This document shows positions 2,047 through 5,000 of a stretch of DNA of 64,000 nucleotides, one piece after another; the stretch's first letter is position 1, and each line of letters starts with the position of its first letter. Source of the DNA: Candidatus Rokubacteria bacterium RIFCSPLOWO2_02_FULL_73_56 (GTDB taxonomy: Bacteria > Methylomirabilota > Methylomirabilia > Rokubacteriales > CSP1-6); assembly GCA_001788495.1 (NCBI GenBank), contig MGCF01000114.1, positions 1,074-65,073 of the forward strand, given 5' to 3'. The notes under the pieces are model-generated. The model was not told the origin of the DNA and did no database searches. It saw only the letters and a program-made list of their open reading frames with translations. The translations under genes were made by a program, and so were the position numbers.

Positions 2047-5000
2047 CTACCACCAGCAGCCCGGCTTGGGCGCCGGCTTGGGATCCGGGCGGATGACGAA
2101 GGCCTGGTCGTGGGCCTCGTCGTCCAGGTCGAGGTCATAGTACGGTGCCCACGGACTCGGCGAGCCGAGCGCCTGGCTGGTCCCGTACACGTCCAGGTGC
2201 CCCGCCCAGATGACCAGGCGCGCCTTCAGGATGTTCGCGAGCGTCGACGAGGTGTCGTGGCCGCTCCGGATCGTGTCCCGGTCCTTGCTCTTCTTGCCGG
2301 TCGCGCCCTCGAGCGTGTCGCTGTCGCCGCCGCCCACCAGGTAGTCGTCGCCGTCCCCGCCGTATAGCCGGTCCCGGCCGTCCTGGCCGAACATCACGTC
2401 GTCGCCGGCGCCGCCGTAGAGCGTGTCGTCGCCGGCCGTGACCTGGAAGTCCTCCTGGTCGTGGTCGTCGTGATCGTCGTGGTCGTGGTGCTCGTGGTGG
2501 TGCCACCAGCCGTGGTGGTGCTCGTGGTGCCCGATCTCGGTGAGGTCCTCGACCGCCTCCCACGCCTCGTCGATCGCCCAGCGGTCCTGCCAGCTCGGGC
2601 TGAACGTCGTGCTCACGTTCGGCGCCACCAGCGCGAGGCTGTCCCCGAACATCACGTCGTTGCCGTTGCCGCCGTCGAGCACGTCGTTGCCGAGCGTGAC
2701 GATGTCACCGGCCCCGTGGTGATGCCAGCTGCCGTGGTGCGACCAGTAGTCGTCGTGCCACGCCTGATGGCGGTGGCGGCCATGGTCCTTCCAGCCCCAC
2801 CAGTCGCCGTCCCACCAGTCACCGTCGTGCCAGCGGTGGTGCGGCTTCGAGGCCTTCCCGCCCTCCGTCAGCGTGACGTTCGCCGTCAGGTGGAGCTTCT
2901 GGTCGCCGACCAGGAGGTCGTCGCCGTCGCCGCCCAGGAGGGTGTCGGCGCCGATCGAGATCCGGTCCACGTGGTGGCGGAGCACGTCCTTCCAGGACCA
3001 GCCGCTCTTCACCTGGACGATCTCGTTGCGCAGGTGGTGCTGGATGTCGCCCAGCTCGAGCGCGGCGTGCTCGAGCTCCCCGCCGACGAGCTGGAGGCCG
3101 TCCACCAGGAACTCGAAGTCGTCCACGAGGGCGACCGGCATGGTGAAGTTCTGGGCGAGCACCGTGGAGTCGTCGCCCACCAGCACGTCGTTGCCCGCGC
3201 CGCCGTCGAGGAGGTCGGCGGCGATCGTGATCGTCGCGTCCACGACGGTCTCCTGCTTCCAGATGCCCGACCGCCACAGAGCCTCGGACACGGCGTGGTG
3301 GAGGACGGCCGTGAGGTCCGCGAAGTCGTCGGCGATGTCGAGCAGGTCGCCGGTCAGGCCGATCGCCTGCTCCATGCGCGTGTCCGTGAAGACGAGGGAC
3401 GCCGCGAGCACGGTGGAGTTGTCGCCGACCAGCGTGTCCTCGCCCGCGCCGCCGGTGAGCGTGTCGTTGCCGGCGACCAGGTCGAGGTGCGAGCGGACGT
3501 CCGGCACGACCGAGGCGAACGGCACGAGGTAGCTGCCGTCCGCACGGTGCAGGACGTTGTCCGCCGGGAAGAGCGGGATCCCGCCCAGCACGCCGAGCAC
3601 CGCCGGCAGCGGGTCCACGTCGTGGCCCGGGACCACCGATACCAGGGGCACGAGCGTCGTGCCGTCGGGGCCGAGCACCACGCCGGCGGCGGCCTCCACC
3701 GAGCCGGGGCCGGCGATGAGCCGGAGCGCGTGGACGACGTTCGGCACCGCGCCGTCGCCCGTCACGACCGTGGACCGGTCGCCCACGAGCTGGTCGTCGC
3801 CGTCGCCGCCGTCGAGCACGTCGTCGCCGAGGTCGCCCTCGAGGTAGTCGTTGCCGGGGCCGCCGGTCAGCGTGTCCTCGCCGCGGCCCGCGTAGAGGGC
3901 GTCGTCGCCCGCGCCGCCGTCGAGCACGTCGTCACCGTCCGGCACGAGCGTGACCAGGAACAGCTCGGTGTCCCACCGGTGCGTCCAGTGCTCCCACCAC
4001 CGGACGGGCGCCCGGTCGGGCACCAGGTCGTGGCCCCCGTCGGCGTCGAAGGCGCCCGTGACCAGGATGAGGTCGGCGCCGACGAGCGCGGCCGCGAGCT
4101 CCGGGGTGAGGTCGTCCCAGCGGAGCCCGTCCAGGTCGTACCGGGCCGTGAGCATGCCCACGTCGGTCAGCCAGACGTCGCGGTGCACCGAGCCGTTCGG
4201 GTTGAGCCGGCCCATGCGCTCGATCACGCCCGTGTCGCCCAGCAGGATGTCGTGGCCCGCCTCGCCGTAGAGCGTGTCGTTCCCGAGCTCGCCGTACAGC
4301 TCGTCGTCGCCCGCACCGCCGTAGAGGGTGTCGTCGCCGTCCTGGCCGTGGATCACGTCGGCGCCGCCGAGCGTCGGCGGGCCCGACGTCACCAACGGCG
4401 GCGTCACCGTGAGGTCGACCGTGCCGTTGTCGCCGACGACGATGTCGTTCCCGGTGCCGGCGGTGATGAAGTCGTCCGCCGCGCCGCCGAGGATGATGTC
4501 GTCGTTCGCGCCGCCCTCGATCGTGTCGGGGCCGCCGATCGTCGGGTCGGTCGTCTCCACCCGCGTCACGACGCCGGCGGTGCGCATCACGATCCCGTTG
4601 TCGCCCAGGATCACGTCGAAGCCGGCGCCGCCGGTGAGCAGGTCGCCCTCGGCGCCGCCCAGGATGATGTTGTCGCCGGCGCCGCCCGTGATCGTGTCGG
4701 CACCGCCGATGGCGGGCTCGGTCGTGAACACGTCGCCGCCGACGATCACCTCGCCGTTGTCGCCCAGGATGATGTTGGTGCCGCCCGGCGCGCTGATCAC
4801 GTCGGCGAAGGTGCCGCCCAGGATGATGTTCTGGCCGCCCAGGCTGGTGATGGTGTCCGGGCCGCCGGTGGTCCCGTCCTCGTCGCCCGTGATGACCCGC
4901 GTGACGACGCCGGCCGTCCGGAGCACCGCGCCGTTGTCGCCGAGGACCGTGTTGGTGCCGCCGCCCAGCGTGATCGCGTCGCCCGCCGCGCCGCCCAGGA

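Follow-up and report, generated by a model that had tools for sequence, protein, structure and literature searches.

His/Trp-rich loops between the terminal RTX blocks of a giant Rokubacteria protein: a conserved feature of a protein family and a candidate metal- or surface-binding element

The giant gene and its His/Trp-rich segments

The window analyzed in this study is a 64,000-nucleotide stretch of contig MGCF01000114.1 (assembly GCA_001788495.1), and the source of the giant gene that it carries is a Candidatus Rokubacteria metagenome-assembled genome (MAG). Two segments rich in His and Trp, referred to here as segments A and B, are inserted between the last RTX blocks near the C-terminus of the encoded protein. 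The 5' end of the giant open reading frame (ORF) lies beyond base 64000, positions 63910-64000 being without an in-frame stop codon and the sequence there being mid-repeat; the N-terminus is thus outside the window, and the residue numbers used below are those of the truncated ORF. On a related European Nucleotide Archive (ENA) contig from the same organism, at least 22,240 amino acids were called for this gene, which still reaches the contig end, and this size would place the protein among the largest bacterial proteins. The features of the C-terminal region are as follows.

Positions 2047 to 63909, minus strand: giant ORF of at least 20,620 amino acids, from the ORF list
Positions 2050 to 4086, minus strand: conserved C-terminal module, the last 679 amino acids, in which RTX beta-roll turns and long helical hairpins are interspersed (31 homologues aligned, 36-60% identity)
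Positions 3247 to 3288, minus strand: loop C (SEALWRSGIWKQET), topologically equivalent in position to segments A and B
Positions 2890 to 2952, minus strand: RTX block preceding segment A (GADTLLGGDGDDLLVGD...), from the translation
Positions 2704 to 2847, minus strand, residues 20355-20402: segment A, a loop of 48 amino acids (KPHHRWHDGDWWDGDWWGWKDHGRHRHQAWHDDYWSHHGSWHHHGAGD)
Positions 2629 to 2691, minus strand: RTX block separating segments A and B (GNDVLDGGNGNDVMFGD...), from the translation
Positions 2530 to 2601, minus strand: predicted helix ahead of segment B (SPSWQDRWAIDEAWEAVEDLTEIG), AlphaFold2 residues 499-520
Positions 2446 to 2535, minus strand, residues 20459-20488: segment B, a loop of 30 amino acids, (IG)HHEHHHGWWHHHEHHDHDDHDDHDQED(F), in full IGHHEHHHGWWHHHEHHDHDDHDDHDQEDF
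Positions 2305 to 2433, minus strand: terminal RTX block (GDDTLYGGAGDDVMFGQDGRDRLYGGDGDDYLVGGGDSDTLEG), the best-conserved part of the module in the alignment

A sequence-only reading of this DNA had pointed to two His/Trp-rich peptides at 2452-2851, inserted between the last RTX blocks, and had considered them foreign to normal RTX C-termini. Both peptides exist exactly as quoted, on the minus strand within the giant ORF, and the range takes in both segments together with the intervening RTX block. Each segment is bracketed by GGxGxD nonapeptide blocks, with motifs at residues 20326, 20413, 20499 and 20517. The plus-strand reading of 2452-2851 was rejected, as that frame gives poly-Val and the 1,679-amino-acid antisense ORF is an artefact caused by the high GC content of the gene.

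Segment A contains 12 His, 9 Trp and 8 Asp, includes the motifs HRWHDGDWW, WW..W.W and W.DDYW.HH, and terminates in HHGAGD. Segment B contains 13 His, 2 Trp, 8 Asp and 3 Glu and is devoid of Lys and Arg. His thus makes up 25% of segment A and 43% of segment B, the latter also being 37% Asp plus Glu, as compared with 1.07% His, 0.72% Trp and a single Cys in the whole giant protein. Binomial tests against the whole protein gave P = 1e-13 for His (12/48) and P = 7e-11 for Trp (9/48) in segment A, and P = 2.5e-18 for His (13/30) in segment B; a chance origin of the enrichment is excluded. Only five 30-residue windows of the giant protein contain six or more His plus Trp residues, and all five are located within its last 660 residues. 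Loop C of this protein has two Trp and no His, and is rich in His, Trp and Asp in a subset of homologues. The calculated charge of segment A changes from +9 at pH 5 to -2 at pH 7, and that of segment B from +3 to -9.

The RTX identity of the surrounding blocks was supported by Pfam, in which HemolysinCabind (PF00353) matched ten stretches in the C-terminal 799 residues of the giant ORF (translation of 2047-4446, minus strand) with 152.6 bits against a cut-off of 23. All matches in the NCBIfam scan were far under their cut-offs and fell on RTX repeats, leaving both segments uncovered. A PDB sequence search with segment A alone returned only matches with E > 1, to cholera toxin A, and the same search with segment B alone returned nothing. 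These results agree with the view that the segments are not a normal part of RTX C-termini, since the family models match the nonapeptide repeats only and no significant PDB match was found.

The remainder of the giant protein is repetitive. The N-terminal part of the ORF consists of repeats of about 95 amino acids of the form VRFTA.RNGA.F.GL.V.YV.G..AGNE.A.YD....L.V.I..G.TTA.QV..A.N, and a Pfam scan of about 20,000 residues (3910-63909, minus strand) found nothing above threshold except a few RTX repeats. Matches to LysM, KTSC and DUF3613 in this body were marginal or partial, and no Pfam Ig-like or cadherin domain was matched within it, the N-terminus being beyond the window.

Conservation and predicted structure of the C-terminal module

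A search with the last 419 amino acids identified about 30 true relatives with 31-58% identity and 53-95% coverage, nearly all of them metagenome fragments. Relatives on long contigs proved to be the 3' ends of giant genes that had been split by the gene caller; a piece of more than 8,127 amino acids, for example, lies upstream of relative P0020. A single-sequence scan of genome contigs found no relative. In a profile-based genome scan, 78 of 80 loci were generic RTX proteins, and the other two were relatives in Burkholderiales and betaproteobacterial MAGs, both with His/Trp/Asp-rich inserts at equivalent places. A profile search of 1.84 billion representative proteins gave 250,985 matches and was swamped by generic RTX proteins; it added 16 diverse members, and only about two dozen of the top 150 matches cover the whole module. 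In the alignment, the module spans about 650 amino acids, and pairs of RTX turns (xGNDxLxGGxGNDxLxGD) alternate with helices. The three variable loops C, A and B are each located just ahead of the re-entry of the chain into the next RTX unit.

Loop composition was pooled over 48 family members, including this protein and 47 relatives. Loop A (48 sequences, 23-64 amino acids) contains 17.6% His, 10.8% Trp, 22.9% Asp plus Glu and 1.6% Cys; loop B contains 17.1% His and 6.5% Trp, and loop C 11.5% His, 6.1% Trp and 4.0% Cys. The remainder of the module contains 2.9% His, 1.3% Trp and 0.4% Cys, and two other variable loops, which served as controls, contain 0.9-2.5% His, 0.2% Trp and no Cys. In loop A, two or more Trp are present in 44 of the 48 sequences, and three or more His likewise in 44. 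Recurrent motifs of this loop are D.W.D.DW.D near its start, WW..W.W, W.(D/E)(D/E)YW.H and a closing HHG(A/P)GD. In some relatives, His runs are bracketed by Cys, as in AFCHHHDHGC and SACHHHHDCGGC, with motifs such as CHHHDHGC and CHHHHDCGGC. Loop B is variable among homologues, with three or more His in 19 of 41.

The sequence-only reading had proposed to check whether homologues keep the segment. A His/Trp/acid-rich loop was found at the position of segment A in all 47 relatives, and the absence from close homologues that would have counted against the proposal was not observed; at the position of segment B, the loop is kept in many relatives and lost in several. Because homologues keep them, the segments are the hallmark of a protein family and not the oddity of one gene. 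The loops are conserved in composition and position across phyla (Rokubacteria, Burkholderiales), and the comparison of sequences suggests that their selected property is composition rather than exact sequence.

Tandem repeats were detected by Tandem Repeats Finder in the DNA of both segments.

Positions 2796 to 2826, minus strand: 15-nucleotide tandem duplication within segment A (DGDWW twice), period 15, 2.1 copies, 93% matches
Positions 2458 to 2501, minus strand: 9/18-nucleotide tandem repeat within segment B (HD/HDD codons), period 9 with 4.9 copies and period 18 with 2.4 copies, 85-88% matches

The 3' 2.4 kb of the giant gene is 99.5-99.9% identical, with no indels, in three independent assemblies (NCBI, ENA and JGI). 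An assembly artefact or a strain-variable contingency repeat was therefore ruled out, four assemblies being in agreement without indels. With GCA_001790345.1, the identity over this 2.4 kb is 99.5%. The copy in the NCBI MAG (L003) differs from the window by nine substitutions within 19 nucleotides inside segment A (2764-2782, minus strand) and by just three more in the surrounding 2.4 kb. The only amino-acid changes caused by the nine substitutions are R to E and Q to R, with His codons exchanged synonymously, and the cluster looks like a short recombination or gene-conversion tract. Because indels are absent and the substitutions among strains preserve His, it is the residues, and not a DNA repeat, that are constrained.

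AlphaFold2 modeling of the 679-residue module with 32 sequences gave a mean predicted local distance difference test score (pLDDT) of 81.3 and a predicted template modeling score of 0.86. Short-strand beta-roll ladders with pLDDT above 90 were predicted at the RTX blocks, as expected of a beta-roll, and long helices were predicted at residues 235-271, 318-353 and 499-520 of the fragment. A Foldseek search against PDB returned RTX beta-rolls only, including CyaA RTX751 (7usl_C, E = 2.7e-6); TM-scores over the entire model were low. The pLDDT dropped below 50 at 420-441 and 453-456 within segment A (residues 414-461 of the fragment) and at 522-545 within segment B (residues 518-547); a weakly supported helix was predicted over QAWHDDYWSHH in segment A. 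A second run on 419 amino acids with 41 sequences gave the same picture, the deeper alignment making the loops no more confident, and both segments had pLDDT of about 40-55 in the two independent runs. Segments A and B are thus predicted to be flexible loops on a confidently modeled scaffold. The RTX scaffold around the loops is very acidic, with a calculated charge of about -72 at pH 7.

Another stretch rich in Trp and His, RWWEHWTHRWDTELFLVTL, is found where the module begins (3946-4002, minus strand, residues 19970-19988). It is partly kept in relatives as W..W(E/D)T.L.LV.L and has moderate predicted confidence, and for these two reasons it is probably structural rather than a loop.

C-terminal tail and neighboring genes

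The module ends in a tail that is presumed to hold the secretion signal.

Positions 2050 to 2304, minus strand: C-terminal tail of 85 amino acids, terminating in ...PKPAPKPGCWW

Among the at least 20,620 residues there is only one Cys, which occupies the third position from the end (2050-2061, minus strand, last four codons GCWW). Several relatives also finish in Gly-Cys followed by zero to two residues (...KGCKK*, ...GC*), and the terminal Gly-Cys might serve as a conserved C-terminal tag through which the protein is lipidated, cross-linked or sorted.

Methyltransferase, MaoC and Memo genes are located downstream of the giant gene, and the adjoining methyltransferase is identical to OGK98112.1, OGL10049.1 and OGL24947.1. 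A 65-amino-acid ORF (MAEFKRIKIRATLATGVMLL...) at 1834-2031 on the plus strand is convergent with the 3' end of the giant gene and stops 16 bases short of it (2031 versus 2047). This ORF is annotated as a gene in each of the three related contigs and has no family assignment.

In three relatives of different lineages, genes for HlyD-type membrane-fusion proteins adjoin the giant gene on its downstream side, within a similar gene set (L002, 12023-20460; L006, 5412-12285; L007, 9610-16032). The set encodes a GAF-HlyD-type membrane-fusion protein, an M50-peptidase-like membrane protein, a short SecA-like ATPase (domains SecA_DEAD, PP_bind and P-loop_SecA) and a second HlyD-type protein; L002 additionally carries genes for SapC and a PqqD-like protein. 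Neither an ABC transporter nor a TolC gene was observed. The gene set, which is missing downstream of the giant gene in the window, may represent a dedicated non-classical export system.

Proposed role of the loops

The sequence-only reading had put forward a transition-metal (Ni/Zn/Cu) binding or pH-sensing element, or an aromatic anchor to membranes or glycans near a secretion signal that is itself presumed. Binding of transition metals, or of metal-bearing mineral surfaces, is the explanation that we favor for the loops, at a probability that we judge to be somewhat short of even. It is favored because of the composition of the loops, their rise in Cys and their predicted flexibility; the combination of His, Cys and Asp is typical of metal ligands, and the confinement of the bias to three topologically equivalent loops was counted for the same reading. 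An analogy is provided by the His-rich loops of PA4063 and ZnuA, which are disordered until zinc binds (PMC8561739).

According to this proposal, the flexible and solvent-exposed loops would project from a calcium-stabilized scaffold of beta-rolls and helical hairpins at the C-terminal end of a giant secreted fiber protein. Dense His imidazoles and Asp/Glu carboxylates, with Cys in some relatives, set amid clustered Trp would be the working chemistry. With these groups, the loops would coordinate divalent transition metals (Zn, Ni, Cu, Co or Fe), or mineral surfaces that carry metals, in a reversible and multivalent way, and Trp would contribute contacts of a hydrophobic or cation-pi kind. Such binding would vary with pH across the range of soils and aquifers, a dependence expected from the flip in loop charge between pH 5 and pH 7. 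Type I substrates exit the cell C-terminus first, their beta-rolls fold upon meeting extracellular Ca2+, and the C-terminal region of RTX adhesins is the part farthest from the cell. RTX adhesins carry ligand-binding parts at this distal end (PMC7493085). In view of C-terminus-first export and of the distal ligand-binding parts of RTX adhesins, the module would be the outer tip of a very long fiber, displaying loops C, A and B. Export, the outer-tip position, metal or surface binding and the pH switch are all what we infer.

Several observations weigh against metal binding. His is scarce in loop A of some relatives (none in P0032, one in P0029), a Lys-rich subgroup (P0222, P0233 and P0170) keeps the Trp cluster with fewer His, and the most distant relatives retain Trp and acidic residues better than His. 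Because His is not universal in loop A, the ancestral constraint may have been on Trp and charge and not on metal ligands. Loop B, or its entire unit, is absent from P0012, P0016, P0023 and P0025, and the tandem DNA repeats in both segments indicate that part of their length is due to recent slippage. No type I secretion genes were found within the 64-kb window, the upstream flank of the gene lying outside it. Finally, composition is only suggestive of metal binding, and extra cation sites are not obviously needed because the acidic RTX scaffold would bind Ca2+ anyway.

The persistence of Trp where His is lost (P0032, P0222, P0170) bears directly on a different explanation, in which the Trp clusters (WW..W.W and W.(D/E)(D/E)YW) serve as an aromatic anchor by stacking on the sugars of polysaccharides or by inserting at a membrane or other hydrophobic interface, with His and Asp only solubilizing or tuning the loops. 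Trp is kept as widely as His, at least two being present in nearly every loop A, its short motifs recur at fixed places, and the loops are located on the presumed distal end of an adhesin-like fiber. However, the Pfam and NCBIfam scans detected no lectin, carbohydrate-binding or membrane-insertion domain, disordered and highly acidic loops are unlike known sugar-binding sites, and the enrichment of His and Cys would be left unexplained. An anchor of this kind is considered unlikely, at about one chance in five.

The loops might instead act as a switch for self-association, in which His, aromatic and Gly "stickers" would cross-link neighboring fibers or tips into a matrix or sheath upon a change in pH or metal, in the manner of the His-rich proteins from mussel glue or squid beak. 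The composition (His, Trp/Tyr, Gly and Asp), the reversal of charge between pH 5 and 7 and the predicted disorder fit such a role, and zinc-dependent assembly of His-rich secreted proteins is documented (PMC13022425). Nevertheless, just two to three short loops in a protein of more than 20,000 amino acids would give low valency, there is no regular GHGxY-type repeat, and the case is made by analogy only, which leaves this switch rather improbable.

The tandem DNA repeats, loop lengths from 23 to 64 amino acids with sequences that are not alignable in detail, and the loss of loop B from some relatives could also reflect low-complexity expansion, tolerated where permissive scaffold loops gather slippage-prone codon repeats without a function of their own. 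Against this, His, Trp and Cys are enriched at three equivalent loops across phyla in relatives that are only 30-40% identical, whereas other variable loops are unenriched; substitutions preserve His and there are no indels among strains; and a high-GC mutational bias does not favor His or Trp codons. We therefore regard inert expansion as improbable, to a slightly greater degree than self-association.

It is very doubtful that the loops are an aid to export or folding, keeping the terminal RTX units unfolded or soluble in the cytoplasm or pacing calcium-driven folding at the exit of the secretion channel. The loops are acidic, are predicted to be disordered and separate the beta-roll units that would be the first to emerge and fold, but well-studied RTX proteins manage without such loops, the Trp clusters and Cys would be unexplained, and the window is without secretion genes. 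A catalytic zinc site is effectively refuted by lack of conservation: the single zincin-type HExxH match, HEHHH of segment B, is expected from composition, has no peptidase family match in Pfam or NCBIfam, sits in a low-confidence loop and not in the helix of a peptidase fold, and is replaced by HHEEHW in the closest homologue (P0001) and absent from most others.

The module resembles RTX beta-roll domains (PF00353), such as the blocks of Bordetella CyaA and serralysin-type proteases, in its GGxGxD blocks, predicted beta-roll, acidity and C-terminal location, but single pairs of RTX turns alternate here with 35-40-residue helical hairpins and with loops rich in His, Trp and Asp; Foldseek/PDB and NCBIfam searches yielded no RTX family, solved or curated, with this layout. 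Huge size, a long repetitive body and a C-terminal RTX region are shared with RTX adhesins of the LapA and MpIBP type, whose ligand-binding region is distal (PMC7493085). Unlike in these adhesins, no Ig-like extender domains were recognized in the body by Pfam, any N-terminal retention module would lie outside the window, and the neighboring genes of the relatives (GAF-HlyD, M50-like and short SecA-like) are unusual.

The His-rich loops of ZnuA and PA4063 are similarly rich in His, Asp and Glu and flexible, as is predicted here, and are also carried on a folded scaffold, the composition of segment B being very similar; several such loops lie on one face of the protein and bind Zn2+ loosely, at micromolar affinity (PMC8561739). 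There is no homology, however, and ZnuA and PA4063 are small chaperones or binding proteins of the periplasm whose loops lack Trp clusters, whereas the loops described here sit on a giant, presumably extracellular, RTX protein. Squid-beak His-rich proteins are likewise secreted, rich in His and aromatic residues, and responsive to pH and metals in their assembly or adhesion. The same is described for the His-rich coiled coils of mussel glue (PMC13022425). Both are eukaryotic and differ in having many repeats per protein and another architecture, so that the likeness is in composition only.

No paper describing inserts rich in His and Trp between RTX blocks was found in literature searches. RTX blocks and His-rich metal-binding loops are already familiar; what is new is a conserved C-terminal RTX module with a distinctive His/Trp/Asp loop composition. 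As a bolder form of the metal-binding proposal, which we hold to be improbable as a whole, loops C, A and B might jointly form a "metal and aromatic claw" at the outer tip of fibers that would represent a new class, exceed 22,000 residues in length and occur in bacteria of soils and aquifers (Rokubacteria, Burkholderiales). Such a claw would grip Fe/Mn oxide minerals or scavenge trace metals at a distance, would be switched by pH, and would perhaps be exported via the HlyD, M50-like and SecA-like proteins rather than by classical type I secretion.

If the loops are inert, they are a compositional curiosity only. Hardly any annotation exists for the giant RTX-type surface proteins of uncultured bacteria from soil and groundwater, and the His/Trp loops are the sole part of the conserved module whose chemistry suggests a specific activity, namely metal or mineral binding that is possibly pH-gated. 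If this were true, the module would be a natural Ca2+-folded scaffold displaying metal-binding loops, and the loops would offer a first way into the function of an entire family of such proteins.

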